A DNA stretch of 64,000 nucleotides from assembly GCA_965602675.1 (NCBI GenBank), contig CBFCZO010000007.1, forward strand, positions 4,240 through 68,239, in the 5' to 3' direction. The notes below the pieces were generated by a model, which had not been told where the DNA came from, did no database searches, and was given only the letters and a program-made list of their open reading frames with translations. Source of the stretch: an uncultured bacterium (lineage in GTDB: Bacteria; Acidobacteriota; DATKUA01). Within the stretch, counting starts at the first letter, position 1, and each line of letters begins with the position of its first letter. Below are positions 4,093 through 56,635 of the stretch, in pieces. Position numbers and translations under genes: made by a program.

Positions 4093-5775
4093 TCAAACTG
4101 TAAGAATTTCTTGATGCTCGCCGAAGACGGCCCTCAGTGCGTCGGAGATCTCACCCAATGTCGTGTAGCAGCGGACGCACTCGAGGATGGGCGGCATCAC
4201 GTTCTCGCTCCCCGCAGCAGCCTCTCTCAAGCGCTTAAGCGATTGGCGAACCGCGCCGTTGTCGCGCGATGAACGCAGATCGGCCAGCTCCTTAATCTTG
4301 TCCTGCTCGACCGTTTCGTCAATGTGCAGGAGGTCCGCCTCATTCTCCGCTTTGCTGCTGCGGAACCGGTTGACGCCGACAACAACCTGGTCACCCTTCT
4401 CGATCGCCCGCTGATAACGGTAAGCCGCATCCTGGATCTCGCCTTGGACGAAGCCGTTCTCGATCGCCCTGATCGCGCCGCCGACCTCATCAATCCGCTC
4501 GATATACTCAGCCGCACGGCGTTCGATCTCGTCGGTCAAACTCTCGATCGCGTAGCTGCCGGCGAGCGGATCGATCGTATCGGCCACGCCGCTCTCATAA
4601 GCGATAACCTGTTGCGTGCGCAAGGCGATTTCCACCGTCCTCTCGCTAGGCAGCGCCATCGCTTCGTCGAGGCTGTTGGTGTGCAGGCTTTGCGTGCCTC
4701 CGAGAACGGCAGCGAGCGCCTGGAGCGCCACGCGCACCACGTTGTTCTCCGGCTGCTGTGCGGTCAGCGTCGAGCCGGCGGTCTGCGTGTGGAATCGCAG
4801 CAGCATCGACTTGGGGTCCTTCGCCCCGAAGCGTTCCTTGACGATCCGCGCCCACAGCCGGCGCGCAGCACGGAACTTGGCGATTTCCTCGAGGAAATTG
4901 TTGTGGCAGTTGAAGAAAAACGCGATCCGCGGTGCGATGTAGTCTACTTCCAGGCCGGCGCCCTTCGCTGCCTCAAGATAGGCGATTGCGTTGGCCAGCG
5001 TGAAGGCCACCTCCTGCACCGCCGTGCTGCCGGCCTCGCGGATGTGGTAGCCGCTGATGCTGATCGTGTTCCATTTCGGAACGTGGCTGTGGCAGAACTC
5101 GAAGATGTTGGTGATGATCCGCATCGACGCAGCCGGTGGGAAAATGTAGGTGCCGCGCGCGACGTACTCCTTGAGTATGTCGTTCTGGATCGTGCCGCGC
5201 AGGTTGTTAGCCGCCACGCCGGTCTGCTCCGCGCGGGCGATGTAGAGAGCCAGCAGAGTCGAGGCCGTGGCGTTGATTGTCATCGACGTCGACACCTTGT
5301 CGAGCGGGATACCGTCGAACAGCACCTCGAAATCGCGCAGGCTGTCGATGGCCACGCCGACCTTGCCGACCTCGCCGTGGCTCATCGGATGGTCGCTGTC
5401 GTAACCGATCTGCGTCGGCAGGTCGAACGCCACGCTCAGACCGGTTGTCCCCTGCTCCAGCAGATACTTGTAGCGCTGGTTGGATTCGGCCGCGGTGGCG
5501 AAACCGCTGTACTGGCGCATCGTCCAGAATCGCCCGCAGTACATCGTCGGCTGCACCCCGCGTGTGAACGGATATTCTCCCGGGAAACCGAGCTTCTTGA
5601 CGTAAGACCATCCATCGTCGTCCAGATCGGTGGGATCGAAACAGCGCTTCATCTCGATTCCGCTGCTCGTCTCGAACTTCGCCTTGCGCTCAGGATATTT
5701 ATCAAGGGCCTTTGATGTTTTGGCGGCCCATCGTTCCTTCTCGTTCAGCAACGTCTGCCGTTCTGAGTCGTCCAT
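4093..5775 (-). CDS. Methylmalonyl-CoA mutase, large catalytic (N-terminal) domain subunit; no fused B12-binding domain
   Basis: Strong mutase signatures (…[67 protein letters not shown]…). The chosen start is M22 of the ORF, at 5775, behind an AGGAGG site. The protein ends before any B12-binding (DxHxxG) domain. Confidence 0.9.
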
Positions 5776-5968: not shown

Positions 5969-8089
5969 CTATTGCGTGATACCGAGCAGGTCGAACATAA
6001 AGGCGTAGTAGAAGGCGTAGTCGCGGTAGCGCTTGAAGCGGCCGGAGGCGCCGCCGTGGCCGGCCTCCATGTTCGTCCTCAGCAGTAGACGGTTGTCGTC
6101 GGTCTTGAGCGCGCGTAGCTTGGCCACCCACTTGGCCGGCTCGAAGTACTGCACCTGTGAGTCGTGCAGGCTGGTTGTGACCAGCATGTTGGGGTAGGCC
6201 TTAGCCTCCACCTGGTCGTAGGGCGAGTAGGAAAGCATGTAGTCGTAGTACACCTTGTCGTTGGGGTTGCCCCACTCGTCGTACTCGCTGGTGGTCAGCG
6301 GGATGGAGGGATCGAGCATCGTGGTGATCACGTCGACCCACGGCACGTGCGCGAGGATGCCCTTGAACTGCTCGGGCGCCATGTTGGCGATCGCGCCCAT
6401 AAGCAGGCCGCCGGCGCTGCCGCCCTGCGCGAAGAGGCCGTCGGCGTAAGTGTAGTCCTCGTCGCAGAGGTACTTGGCGCAGTCGATGAAGTCGGTAAAG
6501 GTGTTCTTCTTCTTCAGCAGCTTGCCGTCGTCGTACCACCACCGGCCGAGCTCCTGACCGCCGCGCACGTGCGCGATGGCGTAGGAGACGCCGCGGTCGA
6601 CCAGCGTCAGGCGGATCGAGCTGAAGGTGGCGTCCGTGCTCGAGCCATACGAACCATAAGCATAGAGCAACAGCGGATTGGTACCGTCCTTCTTCATCAG
6701 CTCGGTCTTGTAGACGAGCGAGATCGGCACCTTGACGCCGTCGCGCGCGGTCGCCCACAGCCGCTCCGTGGTGTAGTTGGCGGGATCGAAGTCGCCCAGC
6801 ACCTCGTCGCGCTTCATCAACTCCTGCTCTCGCGAGGCCATATTGTAGTCGTAGGTCGACCAGGGCGTCGTCAGCGAGCTGTACCTGTAGCGCACCACGG
6901 GAGTGTCGAACTCCGGATTGGTGCTGACGTAGGCCATGTAAGCCGGCTCGCCGAAGTCGATGTAGTGCTCCTCGCCACCGTCCCAGGGCGCTATGCGGAT
7001 CTGGTTGAGGCCGTTCTTGCGCTCCTGCAGCACCAAGTAGTCCTTGAAGATCTCGATCCCTTCAAGCAACACGTCCTCGCGGTGCGGGATCACTTCCTCC
7101 CAGTTCTCCTGGGCGGTGGCCGTCACCGGGGTCTTCAGCAGGCGGAAGTTCTGCGCGTCCCAGTTGCTGACGATGTAGAAGTAGTCGCCGAAGTGGTCGA
7201 TCGAGTACTCGTGCTCGCGTTCGCGGGGCATAAAGAGTGTGAACTCGCCGGAGGGGTTGTCCGCGTCGAGGAAGCGGTACTCCGCGGCCAGCGTCTGTTG
7301 GCTGGCGATGATGATGTAGCGATCCGATTTCGTCTTCCATACGTAGGCTTCGAAAGTGTCATCGTCCTCCTGGTAAATCAGCGCGTCGCCGGCCGGGTCG
7401 CTGCCCAGCTCGTGGAGGTAGATCTGGAAGGAGCGCAGCGTCTCGGGGTCCTGCTTGCCGTAGAAAACCGTCTTGTTGTCGTTGGCCCAAGCCACGTTTC
7501 CCGTGACGTCGGGGATGACGTCGTCGTACATTTCGCCGCTCTCGATGTTCATAAAGGAGATGGTGTAGAAGCGCCGGCCGACAGTGTCCACGCCGTAGGC
7601 GAGGAGCTTGTTGTCGGTGCTGACGTTGAGGCCGCGGATGCTGAAGAACGGGTGGCCCTCGGCCAGCATGTTGGAGTCGACCATGATCTCCTCCTCGGCC
7701 TCGAGCGTGCCCGCCTTGCGGCAGTAGATCGCGTACTCCTTGCCCTCCTCGAAGCGGCTGTAGTACCAATAGCCGTTCTTGAAGTAGGGCACCGACTCGT
7801 CGGTCTGCTTGATGCGGCCCTTGATCTCCTCGAAGAGTTTCTCCTGGAAATCCTCTGTGTTGGCCATCATCTTCGCGGTGTAGTCGTTCTCGGCGGTCAG
7901 GTAGGCAATCACCTCGGGATTCTCGCGCTCCTTGAGCCAGTAATAGTTGTCGACGCGGACATCGCCATGTATTTCGAGTTCCTTCGCCTCAATCTTGGCG
8001 ACCGGGGGCTGAACTGCCTGTTCCGCCGGCTGGCAAGAAACCAGCATAAGAAGCAGAAACAGTGGTATTAATGCTTTGACTGAACGCAT
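5969..8089 (-). CDS. ptrB: Oligopeptidase B / prolyl oligopeptidase family (S9A) serine peptidase; lipoprotein signal
   Basis: N-terminal beta-propeller region and C-terminal catalytic region (…GGSAGGLLMGAIANMAPEQFKG…) match the S9A family. The signal peptide ends in LVSC. Confidence 0.85.
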   Translation of the reverse strand: MRSVKALIPLFLLLMLVSCQPAEQAVQPPVAKIEAKELEIHGDVRVDNYYWLKERENPEVIAYLTAENDYTAKMMANTEDFQEKLFEEIKGRIKQTDESVPYFKNGYWYYSRFEEGKEYAIYCRKAGTLEAEEEIMVDSNMLAEGHPFFSIRGLNVSTDNKLLAYGVDTVGRRFYTISFMNIESGEMYDDVIPDVTGNVAWANDNKTVFYGKQDPETLRSFQIYLHELGSDPAGDALIYQEDDDTFEAYVWKTKSDRYIIIASQQTLAAEYRFLDADNPSGEFTLFMPREREHEYSIDHFGDYFYIVSNWDAQNFRLLKTPVTATAQENWEEVIPHREDVLLEGIEIFKDYLVLQERKNGLNQIRIAPWDGGEEHYIDFGEPAYMAYVSTNPEFDTPVVRYRYSSLTTPWSTYDYNMASREQELMKRDEVLGDFDPANYTTERLWATARDGVKVPISLVYKTELMKKDGTNPLLLYAYGSYGSSTDATFSSIRLTLVDRGVSYAIAHVRGGQELGRWWYDDGKLLKKKNTFTDFIDCAKYLCDEDYTYADGLFAQGGSAGGLLMGAIANMAPEQFKGILAHVPWVDVITTMLDPSIPLTTSEYDEWGNPNDKVYYDYMLSYSPYDQVEAKAYPNMLVTTSLHDSQVQYFEPAKWVAKLRALKTDDNRLLLRTNMEAGHGGASGRFKRYRDYAFYYAFMFDLLGITQ

Positions 8090-8304
8090 TTGGCACCTCT
8101 CGGTTTCAGTAGACTTAACGGATTCCTTCCTGCATATCAGAGTAGCTGTTTCCAGTGAGGCTTTTGGTAAATGCTGATTATATTGGCGGGCATACCATTA
8201 CGCAAATATGGAACGCCGCCGGCCGGGCATTGTCTTGCGGCTCTCATATGAATTAATCTGGTGACCGCCCGCCGGACGCTGAATAAACCGTTTTGGTGAA
8301 GAAA

Positions 8305-9489
8305 ATGATCCCGGTAACAAAAGAGAATTCTTTTGATGTCTTGATCGTCGGCGGCGGCATCATGGGCTGCAGCACCGCCTATTATCTGCTTTCCACCGAT
8401 CCCGCCGTCTCGGTTGCCGTCATCGAGAAGGACCCCACGTATCAACTGGCATCCACCGCCCTCTCGATGGCCAACGTTCGTATCCAGTTCTCCCTCAAGG
8501 AAAACATCCTCATCTCCAAGTACGCGATGGAGGTGCTGGAACGGTTCGGCGAGGAGATGGAGATCGACGGCGAGATCCCCGATCCGGCCTTCCATCGGGA
8601 AGGCAATCTGTTTTTATTCAAGGAAGAGGAACTGGAGCCGGCACGGGCGGCCATGCAACTCCAACAAGACCTCGGCTGCAATGTTGAGTGGCTGGAACCG
8701 AACGAGATCATCAAACGCTTTCCGCTTTACAAAACAGACGGCTTCGCCGGCGCGACGTTCGGACCCGACGACGGCCATATCGACGCCCACTCGTTCCTTA
8801 TGGGCTATCGCTCTAAAGCTAAAAGCCTGGGCGCGGAATTTAGCAGAGGCGAAGTTGTTCGAGTTATCGTCGATAAAAACAGGGCATGCGGCATCGAACT
8901 GGCATCCGGCGACAAACTCAAATCGGAAGTCGTCGTCAACTGCGCGGGAGCGTGGGCGGCCGATCTTGCCAAAACGGTGGGCATCGAAATACCTGTGTTA
9001 CCGGTCAAGAGGCAGGTCTTTGCCCTCGACACCGAGGTCAAGCCTGAGGGGCAACTGCCGTTGACAAACCTGCCATCAGGGCTTTATTTCCGCACCGAAA
9101 CGGGCGACCTCATCCTCTGCGGAAAATCGCTGCCCGAAGATCAGGTAGGCTACGACACTTTATTGGACAACAGAAGATTCGAAGACATCTTGTGGCCGGA
9201 GCTGGCCGCATTCGTGCCCGCCTTCGACCGACTCAGGCTCGTCCGCGGGTGGGCGGGGCTCTACGCCGTCAACACCTTCGACGGCAACGCTTTCCTCGGA
9301 GAATGGCCGGAGCTGAAGGGCTTTTACCTCGCCAACGGATTCTCGGGACACGGCTTGCAGCAGGGCCCGGCGGTCGGCCGATATCTCTCGGAGCTGATCC
9401 TGAAAAAACGGCCCGCTCTGGACCTGAGCATTTTCTCGCCGGTGAGACTCCTGGAAGACAGGCAGGTGCTCGAAAGCGGCCTGGTTTGA
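8305..9489 (+). CDS. FAD-dependent oxidoreductase (DAO family; sarcosine/D-amino-acid oxidase-like)
   Basis: N-terminal Rossmann GxGxxG (DVLIVGGGIMGCSTAYYL) and 395-aa length. The ORF opens at a TTG at 8293; the ATG at 8305 is preferred. Confidence 0.75.
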   Translation: MIPVTKENSFDVLIVGGGIMGCSTAYYLLSTDPAVSVAVIEKDPTYQLASTALSMANVRIQFSLKENILISKYAMEVLERFGEEMEIDGEIPDPAFHREGNLFLFKEEELEPARAAMQLQQDLGCNVEWLEPNEIIKRFPLYKTDGFAGATFGPDDGHIDAHSFLMGYRSKAKSLGAEFSRGEVVRVIVDKNRACGIELASGDKLKSEVVVNCAGAWAADLAKTVGIEIPVLPVKRQVFALDTEVKPEGQLPLTNLPSGLYFRTETGDLILCGKSLPEDQVGYDTLLDNRRFEDILWPELAAFVPAFDRLRLVRGWAGLYAVNTFDGNAFLGEWPELKGFYLANGFSGHGLQQGPAVGRYLSELILKKRPALDLSIFSPVRLLEDRQVLESGLV

Positions 9490-31237: not shown

Positions 31238-32995
31238 TCAGCGTTTCTTCTCGTAAGTTGCATCAGCCTTGGCGTCTTCCCCCGACTTCACACGCACCTG
31301 CAGGTCATCCGGCTTCTTCCAGCCCTCTGCGCTCTTGAACTCGACTGTCACCTGACCCGGCGTCACGCCATCGGCAGTCTCACCGCTTGCGAACCACTGG
31401 TTGGTGCCGGCAATTCGCCACATGGCGCCGTTGTCTACGGCCCCCTTTGGCTTCAGGATTATCGTCAGAGTCGCTGCTCTCTGCTTCTTGTATGCTCCCG
31501 TGACATTGGTCGTCTCGTTTGCTTTGACTGCCACACTGATGTTGTCGGGAGTCTTCCAGTCCGGGATGTCCTTGAACTCGATGATCCACTCGCCGGATTT
31601 GATACTCTCCCGCATCCGGCCGCTCTGACGCCAATTGGGCGTCCCCACAATGCGCCATTCAGCGCCTGCCTGCACCGCCGCTTCGGGCTGGATGTCGACC
31701 AGGATCCCTCCGTAGTCCGACGTATAGCTGGCGGTGATCGTCACCGTTTGGTCCTTGACTATCCTGACCTTTTGTTTCTCAGGCGTGCCCCAGCCTTCGA
31801 TCTCGCTGAACTCCACCGTGTGAGTGCCGGTTGGCAGATTGGTTTTCGTACTGCCGCTCACGCGCCAATCGTAGCCTTCTTCGGCGATTCGCCATTTGCC
31901 GCCTGCTTCGACTGCCTTGCTCGGCTCGATGTTGACGGTCAGTGCGCCCTTCTCCATTCCATACTTACCGGTAACCGTCGCAGGCCGTCGGGGATCGACG
32001 ATGACGGTTGCGTCATCCGGCTCTTTCCAGCCCGCAATCGACTTGAATTTGACGATGTTCTCGCCTGCGGGTGCGTTCTGAAGGGTTCGACCGCTGGGGT
32101 GCCAGTCGTCATCTCCTTTGAACCGCCATTGTGCGCCGTCGGTAACCGCCTCTTTCGGCTCGATGTTGACGGTCAGCACGCCCTTCTGCCTGCGATAAGT
32201 TCCCGTCATATTAGCCGTCTGCCCGGAGTCGATACGAACCTGCTTGACTGGAGACTTGTCCCAGTACTTCACATCTATGAACTCGATCGTATAAGTACCG
32301 CTGGGAACCTCGGTTTCCGTCGTACCAGAGTAAAACCACTGCGCGGTCCCCTGGCGCCGCCACAGCGCTCCTGCATTTCCGGCTTCGCCGGGGTCGATGG
32401 TAACAGTGAGTGAGCCCCACATCGGTTTGTATGCAACACGGACCGCAGCGGTCCGGCCGAGGGGAACCCTCACTGTCTGCCCTGTTGGTTGTTCCCAGTC
32501 TTTGATGCTGACGAACTCAATCGCCCAGTCGCCTTCCGGAACGTTGTCCTCCTGTTCGCCGCTTCGCAACCAGATCTCGGTGCCCTCGCGCCGCCACATC
32601 GCCCCCGCTCCAACCGCTTCCGGAGGTTCAATGGTAACAATCAGCGAGCCTGATAATGATCTGTATTCGACATCCAGCAGGGCTATCCTGCCTCTGGTTA
32701 TCGAGACTCGCTGAGAAACGGGAGCCTGCCAGCCGCGGATCTCGGTGAATTCCACAGTATAGTTTCCGGGCCGGATGTTGCTGAGCGTCGCGCCGCTGCG
32801 TTGCCAGTCGATTCCGGCAAAATTGGCGATGCGCCACATCGCTCCGGCGTCGACCGCTTCCGGCGGTGCGATGAATACTCGCAATGACCCCGTGGACTGG
32901 GCGGTAGGCGTCGTGGCGAAAGCAGCCGCAGAGATGACGACGAGCAGGATTGCCGCCAGGCCCAACCTCGATTTTCTATTCAAATTCGTTTTCAT
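31238..32995 (-). CDS. Secreted surface protein made of seven tandem ~78-aa PEGA-like repeats
   Basis: Signal peptide, then seven repeats of the pattern G-L-V-I-P-EAV-AGA-WR…W-SG…PG-YT-EF-I-GW-P-Q-V (about 35% pairwise identity). Confidence 0.6.
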   Translation of the reverse strand: MKTNLNRKSRLGLAAILLVVISAAAFATTPTAQSTGSLRVFIAPPEAVDAGAMWRIANFAGIDWQRSGATLSNIRPGNYTVEFTEIRGWQAPVSQRVSITRGRIALLDVEYRSLSGSLIVTIEPPEAVGAGAMWRREGTEIWLRSGEQEDNVPEGDWAIEFVSIKDWEQPTGQTVRVPLGRTAAVRVAYKPMWGSLTVTIDPGEAGNAGALWRRQGTAQWFYSGTTETEVPSGTYTIEFIDVKYWDKSPVKQVRIDSGQTANMTGTYRRQKGVLTVNIEPKEAVTDGAQWRFKGDDDWHPSGRTLQNAPAGENIVKFKSIAGWKEPDDATVIVDPRRPATVTGKYGMEKGALTVNIEPSKAVEAGGKWRIAEEGYDWRVSGSTKTNLPTGTHTVEFSEIEGWGTPEKQKVRIVKDQTVTITASYTSDYGGILVDIQPEAAVQAGAEWRIVGTPNWRQSGRMRESIKSGEWIIEFKDIPDWKTPDNISVAVKANETTNVTGAYKKQRAATLTIILKPKGAVDNGAMWRIAGTNQWFASGETADGVTPGQVTVEFKSAEGWKKPDDLQVRVKSGEDAKADATYEKKR

Positions 32996-33185
32996 TCTTT
33001 ACCCCCGTTGGTTAAATATAGTTGTGGCAACCGATTGTATTACCAGACCCCTCGCTCGCTGTTCACTTGAATGCTAAGCAATTCTAACCTCCAGACTCGT
33101 AGCGTTCAAGGAATTCGGTGGCTGAATACTTTCATCAAGTGTCGCACTCTGCTTTAATTGGACAAACAAATTGCGGGAGGGTGCC

Positions 33186-34922
33186 ATGGCAATTGAAAAC
33201 GGTGAACCGAAGCGCGGGAAAGCCGCGATCTCTGTCCACAGGCGTGATTTCTTGACGGCAGTCGGCGGCCTCGGCCTGGCCTCCACAGCATTCCCCTCCG
33301 CACTTTGGGCACGGGCGCAGGAGGAAGGCTCGATCACCAAGCAGACGATTGTCGAAGCCGAGAAACTCGCGGGGCTGGAGTTCACCGACGCCGAGCGGGA
33401 GTTGCTGCTTGAAGACATCGCAGACCTTCCGAAAAGCTATGAAGAAATCCGCGAGCTGAATATCGGTAACGAGGTTGCCCCGGCGCTCGAATTCAATCCC
33501 ATCCCTCCCGGAACAAAACTTCCCGAGCAGCCTATACCTTCCGGCCCGCTCGATGAAAACGTCGATCTACCGGCGAGCGAGGCCGACCTGGCCTTCATGC
33601 CGGTGACAAAGCTCTCGCAACTGGTCAGGGAGCGCAAGCTCACCTCCACCGAGCTGACCGCGATGTATCTCGCGCGCCTGCGCAAGCACGATCCCGCTCT
33701 CAAGTGTGTGATCAGCCTGACGACTGAGCGCGCGCTGGAAGAGGCCGACCGCGCCGACCGCGAAATCGCCGCCGGCAACTACCGCGGCCCGCTGCACGGC
33801 ATCCCCTGGGGCGCAAAGGATCTGCTCGCCGCCCGTAAATACCGCACCACATGGGGCGCGCGGCCTTACGAGGATCAGGTGATCAATGCCGACGCCACCG
33901 TGACCGATCGCCTTTCCGCTGCCGGAGCGGTGCTGGTCGCCAAGCTGACGCTCGGCGCGCTGGCCTGGGGCGATGTATGGTTCGGCGGCAAGACGCGCAA
34001 TCCATGGAATCCCGAGCAGGGCTCAAGCGGCTCGTCGGCGGGTCCGGCGTCATCAACGGCAGCGGGCCTCACCGGCTTCGCCATCGGCAGCGAAACCTGG
34101 GGCTCGATCGTTTCCCCCTGCTCCCGCTGCGGCTCCACCGGCCTGCGCCCCACATTCGGGCGCGTCAGCCGCCACGGCGCCATGGCTCTCTCATGGACGA
34201 TGGACAAGCTCGGTCCTATCTGCCGCAGCGTCGAGGATTGTGCCCTCGTGCTCGACGCGATTTACGGCCCCGACGGCTTGGACACCACCGTGATTGACCA
34301 CCCGTTTGCCTGGAACCGCGACCTCGACGTCACAAAGCTGCGTGTCGGCTACCTCAAGTCGGTCTTCGAGCGCGAGCCGGAGGAGGAGCAGGCGAAAGAG
34401 GCCCACGCGATCAACCTGCGCACGTTGGAAGAGCTGGAGAAGGCCGGCATCAGGCTGGTCCCCTTCGAGTTGCCCGACTTCCCCGTCGGCGCGCTCTCCT
34501 TCATCCTCAACGCGGAGGCCGCTGCCGCCTTCGACGAATTGACCCGCAGCAACCGCGACGACCTGCTGGTTCGCCAGATCAAAGATGCCTGGCCCAACAC
34601 CTTCCGCCAGAACCGCTTTGTCCCGGCCGTCGAATACATCCAGGCAAACCGTGCGCGCAGTATCCTGATGCGAAAGATGGCCGAGGTGATGGAGAAGGTC
34701 GACGTCTACGTCTGCCCTCCCTACGGCGGCAACAACCTCCTGCTCACCAACCTCACCGGACACCCCTGCGTCGTCCTGCCCAACGGCTTCCGCGAAAACG
34801 GCACTCCCACCAGCATCACCTTCAACGGCAAGCTCTTCGGCGAAGCGCAATTGCTGGCCGTCGCCAAAGCCTACCAAGACGCCACCGGTTACCATCTCAA
34901 GCACCCGCCGCTGTTTATTTGA
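33186..34922 (+). CDS. Amidase-signature family amidase, Tat-secreted
   Basis: Twin-arginine signal (HRRDFLTAVGGLGLA) and the amidase-signature Gly/Ser-rich region (…GSSGSSAGPASSTAAG…). The ATG at 33186 sits behind GGGAGG. The terminator hairpin is at 34935-34975. Confidence 0.8.
   Translation: MAIENGEPKRGKAAISVHRRDFLTAVGGLGLASTAFPSALWARAQEEGSITKQTIVEAEKLAGLEFTDAERELLLEDIADLPKSYEEIRELNIGNEVAPALEFNPIPPGTKLPEQPIPSGPLDENVDLPASEADLAFMPVTKLSQLVRERKLTSTELTAMYLARLRKHDPALKCVISLTTERALEEADRADREIAAGNYRGPLHGIPWGAKDLLAARKYRTTWGARPYEDQVINADATVTDRLSAAGAVLVAKLTLGALAWGDVWFGGKTRNPWNPEQGSSGSSAGPASSTAAGLTGFAIGSETWGSIVSPCSRCGSTGLRPTFGRVSRHGAMALSWTMDKLGPICRSVEDCALVLDAIYGPDGLDTTVIDHPFAWNRDLDVTKLRVGYLKSVFEREPEEEQAKEAHAINLRTLEELEKAGIRLVPFELPDFPVGALSFILNAEAAAAFDELTRSNRDDLLVRQIKDAWPNTFRQNRFVPAVEYIQANRARSILMRKMAEVMEKVDVYVCPPYGGNNLLLTNLTGHPCVVLPNGFRENGTPTSITFNGKLFGEAQLLAVAKAYQDATGYHLKHPPLFI
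34861..34907 (+). repeat. Direct repeat copy A, the authentic 3' end of the amidase CDS. Its partner is at 36131-36177.
   Basis: 47 bp, 39/47 identical to copy B. The differences are mostly at synonymous codon positions. Confidence 0.7.
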
Positions 34923-35209
34923 GCGTGAAAAAAATTACGCCGCGGATCGGGTCACACCGGTCCGCGGCGGTTTCTATAACAACGGAGGTTCGATTTACTT
35001 CACTTCGGCACTTCAAAGAACTTATCGTCCAAAGGCTCGTTGAACTTTAGTTCTTCAACAAGGATGGTGAGGCCCGCGGTGGTGTAAATCTTGAACGAAT
35101 CAACGAGGGTGTTGACTGATGCGGGCTATTCCACGATAACGACGAACCTCAGGCAGCAAATCACGCAGAGTATGTTTGGATAATAATCGTGATAATTATT
35201 TAAATCGCT

Positions 35210-35863
35210 TTATCTCATATTCAATCCTCTCTTCTTGATTCCATAATCATAAGTATCATCTTCACCGATCACATATACAGTGAAATAGTCTTCTCTATGT
35301 GGAAATGTATTCCATTCGAAATAACCTATCACACTTGATGATGTCACCTCGAATCCAAACGCATTAATGTACATGTGAGGAATAACTACAGTATCAATTG
35401 GTCTGATAGGATTGTCTAAATCGTTGTCTACAACAATGACAATGCCCAGTGCATGACGCTGATACAGGATGTAGCCTCCACTCATTTGGGGATAGGGTGC
35501 CCAGACCTCTACGGCCGCAACGTTCCTCGAGTACTTTTTGATATCATCCTCAGACAACTCAAAATCAGTAAATTTTTTTAACGCTCTCCTCTGAGCCAAG
35601 GCCACCTCTTTCGTAAGGGTTTGTATGGGTCCGAGAAAATAGAATCTGAAATCGGAATTAACAACACCATACTGAAACTCCGCATTCAATTTGTCGTATA
35701 TTTTGAAACGATTATGCAAAACTGCTTTTGAGTGTCCCAATAGTTTCCCTGCTTCAATTGCCTTCTCAACCTCTTCCTGCGGCGGGTAGACCTGAGAAAA
35801 TACTGATTGAGAGGCCACAGCAAAACAAACAATGAACGTCGCGATCACGAGTAATCTTTTCAT
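35210..35863 (-). CDS. Hypothetical secreted protein encoded in a low-GC insert
   Basis: Signal peptide (MKRLLVIATFIVCFAVASQSVFSQ). Base composition is markedly lower-GC than the flanks, and no family was recognised. Confidence 0.6.
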   Translation of the reverse strand: MKRLLVIATFIVCFAVASQSVFSQVYPPQEEVEKAIEAGKLLGHSKAVLHNRFKIYDKLNAEFQYGVVNSDFRFYFLGPIQTLTKEVALAQRRALKKFTDFELSEDDIKKYSRNVAAVEVWAPYPQMSGGYILYQRHALGIVIVVDNDLDNPIRPIDTVVIPHMYINAFGFEVTSSSVIGYFEWNTFPHREDYFTVYVIGEDDTYDYGIKKRGLNMR

Positions 35864-36130
35864 GACACACCCCCATCTAAAGACGATCTAGTATTATCAC
35901 ATCAGGCTAACAGTCACCGCACGCAACAGCAAGGGAATAAATATGCACTTTTAAATTTCTCAGAGTTTTATTATAAACGTCACATTCAATGTTTCTGATG
36001 GAAAATTCTTGTTAGTAACACACTATTCATTTCACAAGCTGATGTGATTAGATCGAACCTCTCGATAAACAAAAAGAGATGGTAGCTTTAACAATGGCAA
36101 AGTAGTAAGCAGTTGACTAGCTGTAGGCTG

Positions 36131-36177
36131 TAGCCAAGGCCTACTAGAACGCCACTGGCTACCACCTCAAGCACCCG
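36131..36177 (+). repeat. Direct repeat copy B, a diverged pseudo-copy of the amidase 3' end (encodes AKAY*NATGYHLKHP*)
   Basis: Same frame and peptide as the amidase C-terminus, but with an internal TAG. Weaker homology extends back to about 36108. Confidence 0.7.
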
Positions 36178-36236
36178 TAGACGCATTATTGCTCAATGGG
36201 CCTCCGGGCGCCTGCATGCAACACAAATCAAGAATG

Positions 36237-38006
36237 CTATTCCCCGTTTTTTTCAAACACCACCTTGCCGTCGACGATCGTCATCACAACGTTCATCTTG
36301 AGGATATCTTTCGGGTCGCACTTCATCAGGTTGAGATCGCAGACGGTGATGTCGGCCAGCTTGCCCTCCTTGATCGAGCCGCGCACTTCGTCCTCAAAAG
36401 CGGCGTAGGCGTTGTTGATCGTGTAGGCCTTGAGCGCCTCGTGAACGGAGATTTTCTGCTCGGGGAACCAGCCGCCCTCGGGCGTGCCGTTGAGCGTCGT
36501 GCGGTTGACGGCGGCGTTGATCAGGTACTTCGGGTGGACGTGGTACTCCGCCGCCGAGGTGCCGGGCCAGTCGGAACCGAAGGAAAGGATGGCGCCGTTG
36601 TCGAGCAGCGAATTGAACGCGTAGGCTCCCTTGCAGCGCTCGTGGCCGATGCGTTCCTTCATCCAGCGCATGTCGTCCGAGAGGTGGTAGGGGTTGACCT
36701 CGGCGATCACATTGAGGGTTCTGAAGCGTGAGAAATCGTCGGGGCGCAGCACCTGCGCGTGGATCACGCGGAAGCCGCGCAGATCCTGCCCCGTTTCGTC
36801 TCTGAGGCGTTCTATACAGTCGAGCAGCAGGGCGCAACCCCTGTCGCCGATGGCATGGACGTTGGCGACGAAGCCGGCGTTGTAGCCGACCTTCAGCAGC
36901 TCGTACATCTTCTCCATGTTACCGGTCACGAAATCAGGATCGTCGCTGGTGTGGCGGCGGTAGTGGCCGTAGTTGTCGGGCTGATCATCGTAAGGCTCGA
37001 AGAACAGGGCGCCGTGGGTGCCCATGATGCCGTCGACGTAGCCCTTGAGCGCGCCGTAACGCAGCCACGGATCGGGCTCCTTCGTCTCTGGGTGCAGGCC
37101 CATCGTCAGGCCCTTCTCTTGCAGCTCGGCACCGCGGGAAAGGTCGGGGCGCAGCCAGACGCGGCAGGTCAGCTCGCCGGCCTTCTGCAACTCCAGGAAG
37201 CGCGCGGTTTGTTCGGCAGTCGCGATATCCTGAACCTCGACGATGCCACACTCCGCCAGCTTTTTCAGGGCGGCGCGGTTTTCGTCGAGCAAACGCTTGC
37301 GCGACTTCGGCTTGACAACCTCACGGATTTGCTCCAACGCTGGAGAGGCGCGCTCGATCAACCCCGAGGGCCTGCCTTGCTCATCGAGCCGCATACCAGG
37401 CAGGCGCGACTCCTCCAGCCCCGCAGCCAGCAGCGCGGGCGTGTTGGCGAGATACAATTCATAGTCGAAACTGCAGAGCAGGCAGGGATTGCTAGCCGTG
37501 ATCTCATCTATCAGCCAACGGGTGGGTTGCCAGCGCTCCGTCTTCTTTTCCCCTGAAGTCTCGGCACCCAACGCCCACTCCTCGTAGGCTCCCCAGAGGC
37601 CGCCGGTAATCCATTCGCCGTCTTCGAGGATCCCGACCACGCGCTCCATCTCCGCGCGCAGGCCTTCATCATCGGCGACGGTCATCAGGTTGGCGTCGTT
37701 GATCAGCTCGCCCGCGCGGTTGAAATGCACGTGCCCGTCGATAAAACCGGGCACGACGAAGTCGCCGCCCAGGTCGACGACGCGCGTCCCCTCGCCAACA
37801 TATTTCCGCGCCTCGCCGTCGCTGTCGAGCACGGCCGAGATCTTATTGCCCGTAATCACGACAGCTCTAGCCCACTCGTGGCTCGTTTCCATCGTGTAGA
37901 CCTCGCCGTTGAGCAGCACGATGTCGGCCCTTTCAACACCCGGCGAGCAGGCCGCTAACAGAATGATCGCGGTAAAGAAGATCCCCAGCAAACAAGCGAA
38001 CCTCAT
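36237..38006 (-). CDS. Amidohydrolase-family metal-dependent hydrolase, lipoprotein
   Basis: Lipobox LLAAC. N-terminal metal-binding motif (…DLGGDFVVPGFIDGHVHF…). 589 aa. A GGAGGTGG ribosome-binding site precedes the ATG. Confidence 0.8.
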   Translation of the reverse strand: MRFACLLGIFFTAIILLAACSPGVERADIVLLNGEVYTMETSHEWARAVVITGNKISAVLDSDGEARKYVGEGTRVVDLGGDFVVPGFIDGHVHFNRAGELINDANLMTVADDEGLRAEMERVVGILEDGEWITGGLWGAYEEWALGAETSGEKKTERWQPTRWLIDEITASNPCLLCSFDYELYLANTPALLAAGLEESRLPGMRLDEQGRPSGLIERASPALEQIREVVKPKSRKRLLDENRAALKKLAECGIVEVQDIATAEQTARFLELQKAGELTCRVWLRPDLSRGAELQEKGLTMGLHPETKEPDPWLRYGALKGYVDGIMGTHGALFFEPYDDQPDNYGHYRRHTSDDPDFVTGNMEKMYELLKVGYNAGFVANVHAIGDRGCALLLDCIERLRDETGQDLRGFRVIHAQVLRPDDFSRFRTLNVIAEVNPYHLSDDMRWMKERIGHERCKGAYAFNSLLDNGAILSFGSDWPGTSAAEYHVHPKYLINAAVNRTTLNGTPEGGWFPEQKISVHEALKAYTINNAYAAFEDEVRGSIKEGKLADITVCDLNLMKCDPKDILKMNVVMTIVDGKVVFEKNGE

Positions 38007-38225: not shown

Positions 38226-38618
38226 TCAGACAGCTAAAGCCTGTTCCGGTTTATCCATGACTTCCTTGAACTGCTTGACGGCCTCGACGACATGCGTCGC
38301 ATAGATCATCGAGGGGCCGCCGCCCATCAGCATCGCCACGCCGAGGGCATCCATGATCTCCTCCTCGGTTGCGCCGGCGAGCAGGGCGTCATGGGTGTGA
38401 AAAGCGATGCAGCCGTCGCAGCGGACCGTGACGGCGATCGCCAGAGCGATCAGTTCCTTGGTCTTCGCATTGAGAGCGCCATCGGTGGCGTTGGCGTGAT
38501 GCAGCGAGCCGAAGGCCTTCATCGTCATGGGTTGGCCGTTGGCGAGCATCTGCTGGAAGGTTTTAATGTGATCAAGCTGATCGGGGTAATTCTTTGCTAC
38601 CGCTCTATCTTCAGCCAT
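38226..38618 (-). CDS. Carboxymuconolactone decarboxylase / AhpD-like family protein
   Basis: Catalytic CxxCxxxH motif (RCDGCIAFH). The start is the ATG at 38618 behind AGGAGG; the longer ORF in the six-frame track lacks a ribosome-binding site. A downstream terminator hairpin lies at about 38150-38197. Confidence 0.75.
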   Translation of the reverse strand: MAEDRAVAKNYPDQLDHIKTFQQMLANGQPMTMKAFGSLHHANATDGALNAKTKELIALAIAVTVRCDGCIAFHTHDALLAGATEEEIMDALGVAMLMGGGPSMIYATHVVEAVKQFKEVMDKPEQALAV

Positions 38619-39004
38619 TGTTTCCTCCTGTATGATAAAACCGTCATTTATCAAAATCGTCGACGCAGACGGAAAAGTTCTTGAGCCGACGGCAATATAG
38701 CGTTGCAGGATGATGAATCTATGGAATTCAAACGATCTATATGTCACGACCGGGATAAGGGCTCAATCACAACCGATCGCCTTCATCACGTATTATCAAG
38801 AATCGCCGCTTCCTTCTTCCAATTACAGTATACTGCCACTAGGCGGTCAATATCAACCCTGTGCGAAGTTTATATCGCGTATATTGGGAATATATTCTCT
38901 ATTTAGCGTGCCAGGCTCGCCCGCCTCGTTGTGTTGGATAGGCCCGTAGGCTTGCGGCTGTCTGCGCCGATGATTCCGCAAGCGTTATCTTCAGGCGCTA
39001 ATCC

Positions 39005-39328
39005 TTACCTCTCTCTGTTCTGGCTTATGATCGCCCGGCGTGCCCAGCGCAGCAGCTCGTCGCTATCCTCGAGAATCTCAGCCGGGACCTCGTAATAGCT
39101 CTTAATCGTCTGCTTCGCGTTAGGGCGGAAGGGCTCCATGCCCTTAGCTTCGTATGCTTTTCTGCTGTCGGCGTCAGTCTTGAAGAAAAGCGTGTCCTTG
39201 TTAATGATCGCAAAAAAAACATCCCTGGCGTAGAGGCCGTAACCGCCGAACATGCGTTTACAAACCAGTCCCTCGAGGCCGCCCAGCTGATCGAGCACGT
39301 AGTCCCGAAACTCTTCATTTTTAGTCAT
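39005..39328 (-). CDS. TfoX N-terminal domain protein (standalone)
   Basis: TfoX_N signature (…LVCKRMFGGYGLYARDVFFAII…) in a 107-aa protein. Confidence 0.7.
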   Translation of the reverse strand: MTKNEEFRDYVLDQLGGLEGLVCKRMFGGYGLYARDVFFAIINKDTLFFKTDADSRKAYEAKGMEPFRPNAKQTIKSYYEVPAEILEDSDELLRWARRAIISQNRER

Positions 39329-39355
39329 GAGGATATTCTATCTCGGGAGAAGTAC

Positions 39356-39395
39356 AAAAAAAACGGCGCGCGTTACGGATCGGCAATCGCGCGCC
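39356..39395 (-). terminator. Minus-strand intrinsic terminator with no annotated upstream gene
   Basis: On the minus strand, GGCGCGCG-15 nt loop-CGCGCGCC is followed by T8. It sits about 30 bp upstream of the tfoX start, inside a 660-bp ORF-free region. Confidence 0.55.
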
Positions 39396-39993
39396 TGCTT
39401 GGCAGTTAAGGCATGCGAGTAACTACTTTGGAAACCGTTCATGGTGAACGGATTAATTTCGCAAACTCGCAAAGTGGGTAGCTTCATTGACATAAGAAAA
39501 GACCGCTAACCAATAACTAAACTCGGTAGATATCTTTCAGATTCAAACGGGAGGCCGGAGTGAACCATGCTTAACAAATTCAACCGCCGGTGGCTTTTCT
39601 CTTTTCAACGAGCATCCACGCGCTTCACATTATAATAATAACGCCACCACATGATCAATTGCAAGTTTTTTTATCTCGCGGCCCAAGAAAAAATACACTT
39701 CAAGGAGCCGAGATGTCAGCTACCATGTTACGCAGTTACTAAATAACATCCTTGTAATACAACAATTATAGCAATAACCGGGCACGCCTTGCCTGACACC
39801 GCCTCAGAGCTGTTGTTGTGGCGATTGGATTAATTGGTATTTAATTCACAACTTAGGCGCTGAGAAAAGGAGAGTTCCCGTCACCGTCAAACAGATACAA
39901 AGCAATAAAATCAACAGCTGCTATAATCCTGTGAACAACTGCAGCATGGATTCCGTAACATTTTCAGCCGGCATCCAAAACAGGGGTAGTCAG

Positions 39994-56026: not shown

Positions 56027-56635
56027 TCAAGGCTTAGTCCATATATTTTTCAGAAGTGTATCGCTGGCACTTTTCAGAAGCTCGTTTTCATCCTGCTCCG
56101 GGTTGATCCGTATCTTCATAACCGCCCCGATCATGAACACCAGGATATGGAGCGCGATCAGTTTTCGATCAACATCGCTCCTGATCTCGCCGGCCTTCTG
56201 GCCTTTCTCAATGATCGTCTCAAAAACTTCAAGGAATCTGGCATGGGACTTCTTATAGACATCTCGTATCCTTTCGTCTCGCAGGCTTTCAACATAGAGT
56301 TCCAGATCGATATGACCGTAGTACTTGGCCGCCCAAACCGAATAAATCGAAAGGAAATAATTGATAACCTTTAATAAAGCCTCCCGTGCGCTCTCGATCC
56401 TCTCCACTAGGCTAAACAGCTCTTCTTTCTCTTTGTTGATCCACCTGCTCAGGGCCAGCATAATGTCGTTCTTTCCCTTGAAGTAGTTGTAGACTGCGCC
56501 TGTGCTCAGCCCTGCTTCACCGCTGATGTCGGCAATCGTAGTGTTGAAGAAACCGTTTCTAAGGAAGCATACGTCGGCCGCTCGAAGGATTTGTTCTTTC
56601 CTGTTTTGGATATGCGAATCCGAAACTTTGGGCAC
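56027..56635 (-). CDS. TetR/AcrR family transcriptional regulator
   Basis: N-terminal helix-turn-helix (…FNTTIADISGEAGLSTGAVYNYFKGK…). Confidence 0.85.
   Translation of the reverse strand: MPKVSDSHIQNRKEQILRAADVCFLRNGFFNTTIADISGEAGLSTGAVYNYFKGKNDIMLALSRWINKEKEELFSLVERIESAREALLKVINYFLSIYSVWAAKYYGHIDLELYVESLRDERIRDVYKKSHARFLEVFETIIEKGQKAGEIRSDVDRKLIALHILVFMIGAVMKIRINPEQDENELLKSASDTLLKNIWTKP

Follow-up and report, generated by a model that had tools for sequence, protein, structure and literature searches.

A decaying copy of an amidase gene end borders lineage-specific low-GC DNA in an uncultured Acidobacteriota bacterium

A 64,000-nt stretch of DNA from an uncultured Acidobacteriota bacterium (assembly GCA_965602675.1, contig CBFCZO010000007.1, positions 4,240 to 68,239; hereafter the window) contains a 1314-bp spacer between convergent genes for an amidase and an amidohydrolase. 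Within this spacer, a block of ~1.1 kb (35087–36188) is specific to the lineage, consists for ~1.0 kb of compositionally foreign DNA, carries one real orphan gene and ends in a second copy of the amidase gene end (copy 2). DNA insertion left here a scar of an ordinary kind that has lost its mobility and that arose in more steps than the initial annotation had proposed. That annotation had read the spacer as a single integration that brought in a replacement end of the amidase together with a cargo gene; the scar of DNA acquisition involving the amidase end was borne out, and the one-element scenario found no support. Because of the comparison with the nearest relative, the structure resolved into at least two layers. 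Our preferred reading, held at a little under even confidence, is a layered insertion scar at the convergent junction, that is, an old and eroded integration scar of the type known from e14 in icd. From the amidase onward the spacer holds a hairpin, a startless open reading frame (ORF) fragment, the ORF for a protein of 217 amino acids (aa), 262 bp of AT-rich DNA and copy 2, which are placed as follows.

33171–34922, plus strand: amidase gene, 583 aa, live and intact (Pfam PF01425, E 2e-75).
34856–34907, plus strand: repeat copy 1, amidase codons 563–579 inside the live gene (repeat search).
34938–34969, plus strand: terminator-like hairpin 3′ of the amidase with a 13-bp stem and 11 G-C pairs, also at the same position in the relative L003.
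34985–35125, minus strand: truncated, startless C-terminal fragment of a gene, a 46-codon open stretch (from translation; no family match).
35087–36188: lineage-specific block, missing in the closest relative, which has 36 nt there (blastn block boundaries against L003 and L166).
35126–36125: low-GC foreign segment of ~1.0 kb (GC 0.38, 0.41 and 0.37 in three parts; flanks 0.50–0.62).
35210–35863, minus strand: gene for the 217-aa protein of an orphan family, with a hydrophobic N-terminus, a helical region and a predicted C-terminal immunoglobulin (Ig)-like beta-sandwich.
36126–36177, plus strand: repeat copy 2, a decaying duplicate of the amidase end, non-coding and with two stops in frame (repeat search).
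36178–36236: spacer between copy 2 and the amidohydrolase stop codon, common to L003, whose alignment resumes at 36189.
36237–38006, minus strand: amidohydrolase gene, 589 aa, convergent with the amidase (Pfam PF07969, E 2e-74).

The repeat that drew attention to this junction was real. When 34923–36236 was compared by blastn with the 64-kb window, the only non-self match was the amidase-end repeat (E 6e-9), a direct and ungapped pair of 52 nt with 43 identical positions (83%), which reaches 5 nt further in the 5′ direction than the 47 nt claimed at the outset. Further copies at ≤3 mismatches were absent from the 64-kb window, and none were expected from shuffles. Because the pair is unique in the window at this E value, it is neither a chance match nor an element of the repetitive extragenic palindromic (REP) kind; we give practically no credence to a fortuitous or dispersed REP-like origin and rejected it, the 64 kb holding two copies only, in frame and collinear with a conserved amidase motif. 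The translation of copy 2, AVAKAY*NATGYHLKHP*, agreed with the AKAY*NATGYHLKHP* reported earlier. Weaker homology, which had been thought to extend about 25 bp further 5′, found no support, the best local upstream alignment being equalled by 36% of shuffles (p 0.36).

The substitutions between the two copies had been described as mainly synonymous, and codon position 3 indeed held seven of the nine mismatches (binomial p 0.008). When these were polarised by relatives, three of the seven third-position differences proved to be changes in the live gene, and the description held less well for the changes specific to copy 2, of which four out of six fell at position 3, with one nonsense and one D-to-N replacement making up the rest (p 0.10). 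These private changes are compatible with neutral decay, and copy 2 is a genuine, decaying copy of the amidase end. The displaced gene end that had been supposed found no clear support in it: copy 2 stops 15 nt ahead of the position of the amidase stop codon, and the last five codons are absent. Since at least two residues follow ‘HP’ in all of the ~80 homologues checked (the four closest end in HPPLFx), the ‘HP*’ with its TAG after copy 2 is not a natural gene end. The live amidase ends in ...HLKHPPLFI*, the same type of ending as in its relatives. Copy 2 has a host-like GC content of 0.615 and lies 59 nt from the amidohydrolase stop codon. Together with the bases before it, copy 2 forms a perfect tandem GCTGTAG GCTGTAG at 36120–36133, and it contains a perfect 7-bp inverted repeat, GTAGCCA (36130–36136) and TGGCTAC (36156–36162), which arises from two substitutions private to copy 2 and which the live amidase copy cannot form.

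Comparison with relatives separated the spacer into shared and lineage-specific parts. Loci fetched for this comparison, 172 in total, are referred to by labels such as L001 and L003. The L001 and L002 assemblies represent the same strain and showed the same structure with zero differences in the spacer. The nearest different genome is the Acidobacteriota metagenome-assembled genome L003, of the same species as L166, whose orthologues are 90% (amidase) and 88% (amidohydrolase) identical and in which gene order is conserved. The window is collinear with L003 and L166 over 13.7 kb, with 35087–36188 as the sole large indel. In L003 the amidase end (...HLKRPPLFV*), the hairpin and the truncated ORF occur in unchanged order, with 62–96% identity, and nucleotide homology stops at 35086. 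Identity to L003 runs at 0.88–0.96 through the amidase 3′ end, with no break at the repeat, and at 0.62–0.78 in the non-coding DNA. If TAGACG (36178–36183) is orthologous to TAGATG of L003, the right edge of the lineage-specific block falls at 36177.

As L003 keeps them in order, the terminator and the gene fragment are, like the live end of the amidase, common by descent, and the alignment to L003 places the start of lineage-specific DNA 164 bp past the amidase stop codon. The repeat copies are thus not the brackets of a unit missing in L003, because L003 lacks only 35087–36188; the idea of one insert spanning the whole interval between the repeats had to be given up. Nor does the live amidase end appear to be a replacement delivered by this insert, since L003 also has it, followed by the terminator and the ORF remnant, and neither a drop in identity nor a phylogenetic oddity in the live end spoke for the replacement that had been postulated. 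An uninterrupted amidase–amidohydrolase junction, sought among the relatives, did not turn up: L003 offers no clean empty site, having the shared terminator, the fragment and 36 nt. Two elements of the initial annotation were recovered at this junction, the amidase terminator in full as the 13-bp-stem hairpin at 34938–34969, and the frameshifted minus-strand ORF remnant in part. The translation of the latter was as given, and the ORF fragment (35125 to 34985) is truncated and startless, a stop bounds its upstream side and no frameshift was seen. It is recognisable in L003 (64% identity over 25 aa, E 7e-6), had no Pfam match even at E 10, and had no full-length parent among the 172 fetched loci or in the window.

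Further from the window the junction differs. In L164 (83%) and L165 (82%) the amidase stop codon is followed at once by unrelated DNA, and from this difference we take the downstream side to be variable in the clade. In L165, a different hairpin and a same-strand gene for another secreted-looking protein follow the amidase stop at 7747–8403; in L164, the amidase is followed by AT-rich DNA (4189–4260), the contig ending 72 bp past the stop. The 125-bp flank on the amidohydrolase contig L174 (80%) was unrelated, gene order was not shared by relatives at ≤72% identity, and a metagenome scan for more relatives returned nothing closer than 65%.

The foreign character of the block rests on composition and on its absence from L003. 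GC content shifted sharply at ~35126 and ~36125, which supplied the compositional discontinuity that had been predicted. The 217-aa ORF has a GC content of 0.407 compared to a mean of 0.573 (sd 0.042) over the 38 long ORFs of the window, ~4 sd under that mean, and a GC at third codon positions (GC3) of 0.417 compared to 0.60–0.89 for the remaining long ORFs, so the AT-rich gene noticed at the outset lies in compositionally foreign DNA missing from the nearest relative. When it was compared with the one close homologue (58% identity, contig L163), the proportion of nonsynonymous differences (pN) was 0.30 and that of synonymous differences (pS), which is saturated, 0.77; the ORF is a real gene. 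An exhaustive profile search of 1.84 billion representative proteins yielded a family of five members, the others found on 1-kb contigs only and with unrelated flanks. The protein had no Pfam match, nothing significant in PHROGs (best E 0.06), no tblastn match in phage and plasmid collections and no relative in viral contigs, and the search for it among phage or mobile-element cargo was accordingly fruitless. An AlphaFold2 model from the five sequences (predicted local distance difference test score, pLDDT, 80; predicted template modelling score, pTM, 0.76) predicted that a hydrophobic helix at the N-terminus is followed by a helical region and, at the C-terminus, a beta-sandwich, while a model built from two sequences only was of no use (pLDDT 32). 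Judged from its N-terminus, the protein is probably secreted, and the Ig-like sandwich at its other end hints at a role in binding. The features by which horizontally acquired islets are recognised, namely deviant composition, absence from L003 and L166 and a patchy family of five members, were all found here. The gene could not, however, be tied to the event that made the repeat, as its role of cargo in the initial annotation would demand.

Low GC by itself is no marker of foreign DNA in this genome, because intergenic low-GC stretches are conserved in L166: the intergenic regions at 38600–38900 and 39300–39950 have a GC content of 0.42–0.45 and a position conserved in that genome. Next to the 217-aa gene, the lowest GC of any ORF in the window (0.473; GC3 0.596) belongs to one of 202 aa at 56027–56635 on the minus strand, possibly another acquired gene.

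The origin of copy 2 could be narrowed to the window's own clade. Among the 172 loci, its best matches were the amidase end of L164 (45/52), followed by copy 1 and L003 (43/52 each), and copy 2 has the clade-specific Tyr of GYH, so that it derives from the amidase of its own clade and not from a distant homologue. The amidase tree is ((window, L003), L164), L165. Copy 2 and the live gene both have His in KHP, where L003, L164, L165 and three outgroups have Arg; three synonymous changes found in the live gene alone are missing from copy 2, and a CAC is common to copy 2 and L164. Because parsimony was tied at 53 steps between an origin before and an origin after the split from L003, the 52-nt block alone gives no date for copy 2.

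The corresponding spacer of L003 holds a possible older relic. L003 9933–10002 (70 nt), which stretches from the gene fragment to shortly before the amidohydrolase stop, gave an ungapped alignment with the final 70 nt of the amidase at 34/70, the best of 337 registers, with a dinucleotide-shuffle p of 0.007 (0.016–0.017 against the L003 and L164 amidases). In this register the first base of the 70-mer falls on amidase position 34857, a single base away from where copy 2 starts, and its end coincides with the stop codon. Most of the signal came from the 19-mer CCGCCGCCGCTTGTATGAG, which matches the amidase tail CCGCCGCTGTTTATTTGAG at 15 of 19 positions; only one other match as good was found in 128 kb (both window strands). 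The first 36 nt of the 70-mer were not significant alone in the ungapped register. Aligned with gaps to copy 2, the 36 nt of L003 gave p 0.03–0.045, and 0.014 relative to random genomic windows, with ~7 gaps; they bore no resemblance to the left end of the block (p 0.93–0.97). Similarity of the tail kind was not detectable in the window's own 36178–36236 spacer, and relative to the TAGACG/TAGATG flank the window has 22–27 bases more than L003. These alignments provide moderate evidence (p ~0.01) that the L003 spacer may be a far more decayed copy of the amidase end at the same place, and hence that the amidase-end duplication at this site probably predates the lineage split. Either several small deletions would then have occurred in L003, or copy 2 would be a younger re-copy that fused out of register onto the relic.

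On the layered scar reading, a circular element would have recombined long ago with the amidase 3′ end and duplicated the gene end, either by site-specific recombination, as e14 or phage 21 did in icd, or by a single crossover of the Campbell type. This integration would have preceded the split from the nearest relative, and erosion would since have left of the element only the terminator and the truncated gene fragment. The low-GC gene would be either the last surviving cargo, deleted in the relative, or a later arrival at the same junction. Copy 2 would be the displaced end in a better state of preservation or else the product of a later copying of the live end onto the old relic. The location of copy 2 near the amidohydrolase stop codon is where the gene end would have sat before integration, which supports this reading, and the strong hairpin, the startless gene fragment and the low-GC gene make the DNA between the copies no ordinary spacer. 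Reads joining hybrids of the 34855|36126 type to TAGACGCATTA would indicate deletion through recombination between the copies.

Several observations weigh against an integration scar. Neither the insert nor the ~12 kb to its left and right held an integrase, excisionase or transposase in a recombinase domain scan that covered the long ORFs between 22.8 and 49.2 kb, in agreement with the earlier remark that no integrase remains. No att core was definable, and no significant direct or inverted repeats flanked the low-GC block under strict scoring. The live amidase end showed no drop in identity or phylogenetic oddity at the repeat and closely matched that of L164; this test of a foreign origin has low power over 70 nt, and in so short and conserved a segment a donor belonging to the clade itself could have gone unnoticed. 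Copy 2 retains 83% identity over 52 nt, yet the next 15 nt are unrecognisable, which is odd for one displaced end decaying neutrally. Copy 2 also has no clean orthologue in L003, where the ungapped identity is ~45% by hand count compared to 62–78% in the flanking spacer; the evidence for the L003 relic is moderate and not decisive, and the low-GC gene may be unrelated to the repeat.

Other searches around the block addressed particular kinds of mobile unit. Terminal inverted repeats, as expected of an insertion sequence, a miniature inverted-repeat transposable element (MITE) or a transposon, were absent around the low-GC block. The block ends 35077–35127 and 36072–36129 were alike at p 0.002 under permissive scoring, in windows chosen post hoc, and we did not rely on this figure; in a systematic scan of block-end likeness the junction window came out ahead by a small margin only. 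The imperfect 7-mers GGTGTAA (35080) and GCTGTAG (36120), facing a single GGTGTAG in L003, could reflect a target duplication or a microhomology deletion alike. An integron gene cassette was considered and rejected: the 136 nt 3′ of the 217-aa ORF folded no better than shuffles (z +0.8) and held no attC-like structure, and there was no significant inverted repeat and no integrase. Rfam families were absent from 34700–36500. A 16-nt inverted repeat with 15/16 complementary positions joins GAGCGTGAAAAAAATT (34921–34936), at the amidase stop codon, to AATTTTTTTAACGCTC (35571–35586), inside the 217-aa gene; it contains an A/T run and may be due to chance. A 13-nt inverted repeat (12/13) has its arms GAGGTTCGATTTA (34985–34997) at the end of the truncated ORF and TAGATCGAACCTC (36049–36061) in the AT-rich DNA upstream of the 217-aa gene; chance alone would give ~0.5 such pairs in the region.

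The same border might have formed in one recent step, which we regard as a serious but rather unlikely course of events. Once the lineage had separated from L003, foreign DNA of ~1 kb would have been joined at the junction by end-joining or by illegitimate recombination associated with replication, for example after uptake of naked DNA, and a 52-nt patch would have been copied from the amidase end ~180 bp away, through filler or template-switch synthesis or through ectopic single-strand annealing as in short-patch double illegitimate recombination. Such an event would account for copy 2 lying exactly at the right edge of the lineage-specific block with sharp edges on both sides and without the gene tail, for the His of KHP that copy 2 and the live gene have in common against the Arg of relatives and outgroups, for the plainly native amidase end, terminator and remnant, and for the lack of a recombinase in the insert; the integration of ectopic single strands at microhomologies is, moreover, a described bacterial mechanism (bioRxiv 10.1101/2023.11.22.568220). 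The price is that the likeness of the L003 spacer, in the same segment and register, would have to be accidental (p ~0.007–0.017), that parsimony showed no preference for an origin after the split (53 steps for several placements of copy 2), and that no convincing microhomology was seen at the junctions. Templated-patch events are not known from the capture of 1 kb of foreign DNA, and the absence of any documented bacterial case known to us of a 52-nt templated patch on a 1-kb foreign insert counts against this route. An origin from a second amidase, a tandem paralogue or acquired homologue next to the amidohydrolase whose body was deleted or replaced to leave the conserved C-terminal block, seemed unlikely. 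It would fit the 52-nt block being the best-conserved C-terminal motif of the family, AVAKAYQDATG(Y/F)HLKHP, over which distant homologues still match at 38–41/52, and the third-position bias, which is as expected for the divergence of two genes both under selection; tandem amidase pairs do occur elsewhere, L055 being an example. A second amidase is missing, however, from every relative that conserves the gene order, and the similarity ends abruptly on the left though the clade conserves the neighbouring GEAQLL codons well. The clade-specific Tyr in copy 2 argues against a distant paralogue, and the match of the L003 relic to the tail of the live gene would be unexpected for a diverged one.

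A more elaborate form of integration, which we consider very unlikely, would make the amidase 3′ end a repeatedly used attachment site for tiny integrase-less cassettes moved by a recombinase encoded elsewhere. Nested displaced ends would have been left behind, namely an old relic common to L003 and a younger 52-nt copy fused out of register, and the orphan secreted protein would be typical cargo. Highly improbable, finally, is a copy 2 kept for a function, whether as a 3′ untranslated hairpin or antisense segment of the amidohydrolase transcript that pairs with the amidase mRNA end, or as a recombination site in use. Copy 2 has no indels whereas its L003 counterpart is badly decayed, its private substitutions make the perfect 7-bp inverted repeat, and its minus strand lies downstream of the amidohydrolase stop codon with no terminator-like site between. 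A functional element of this kind is difficult to reconcile with the lack of conservation in the nearest relative, with the absence of an Rfam match and of a recombinase, and with six private substitutions in 52 nt, a number near the neutral expectation.

The arrangement resembles several known systems without matching any of them. Genomic islands at the 3′ ends of tRNA and transfer-messenger RNA (tmRNA) genes are flanked by partial gene duplications; in them, as in the proposed layered scar, integration takes place at a gene 3′ end and the duplicated end forms a direct repeat. The junction described here differs in having a protein-coding target, an ‘island’ of ~1 kb with a single gene, and no recombinase. 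Small acquired islets with orphan genes share the anomalous GC and GC3, the absence from the closest relative, the tiny patchy family and the lack of detectable mobility genes, but usually have no copy of a neighbouring gene end at their border. In short-patch double illegitimate recombination, a short ectopic stretch of the cell's own genome is likewise copied at microhomologies (bioRxiv 10.1101/2023.11.22.568220); by analogy, such templated-patch mutation could yield an isolated, sharply bounded 52-nt copy of nearby sequence, but the events described are microindels, and there are no clear microhomologies here.

The likeness that guided our preferred reading is to the e14 prophage of Escherichia coli, which is flanked by icd, extending into the prophage, and by icdC, a C-terminal pseudogene (PMC13626634). 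In e14 or phage 21 in icd, as in the amidase spacer, non-native DNA lies between two direct copies of a gene 3′ end, of which the distal one is a fragmentary pseudogene, and the copies differ mostly at synonymous positions (PMC13626634). In contrast to icd, the amidase spacer has neither an integrase nor other element genes, its distal copy measures 52 nt with the stop-proximal 15 nt missing, and nothing indicates that an element supplied the live end. Moreover, L003, which has no low-GC gene, retains DNA beside the live end, so that it presents no clean empty site.

Two neighbouring genes of the junction deserve mention. Adjoining the amidase, 31238–32995 on the minus strand encodes a 585-aa protein with no Pfam family, which is internally repetitive (self-match of 39% over ~480 aa at a shifted register) and whose L003 orthologue is 68% identical, compared to 82–90% for its neighbours. 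At 39005–39328 on the minus strand, 3 kb from the insert, lies a gene whose product has a TfoX N-terminal domain (PF04993, E 5e-29). In some bacteria natural competence is under the control of TfoX-family proteins, and given the one encoded nearby, uptake of naked DNA is one conceivable route by which the foreign gene arrived.

A repeated gene end beside low-GC DNA is thus insufficient to call a single integration event. The 217-aa protein, from an orphan family of five whose fold is predicted with confidence and to which no function has been assigned, is a minor lead. If the integration-scar reading is true, the amidase gene would add one more protein-coding 3′ end to the known attachment sites, in a poorly studied phylum accessible through metagenomes only, and the junction would show how such an integration can erode down to one foreign gene and a 52-nt pseudo-end.

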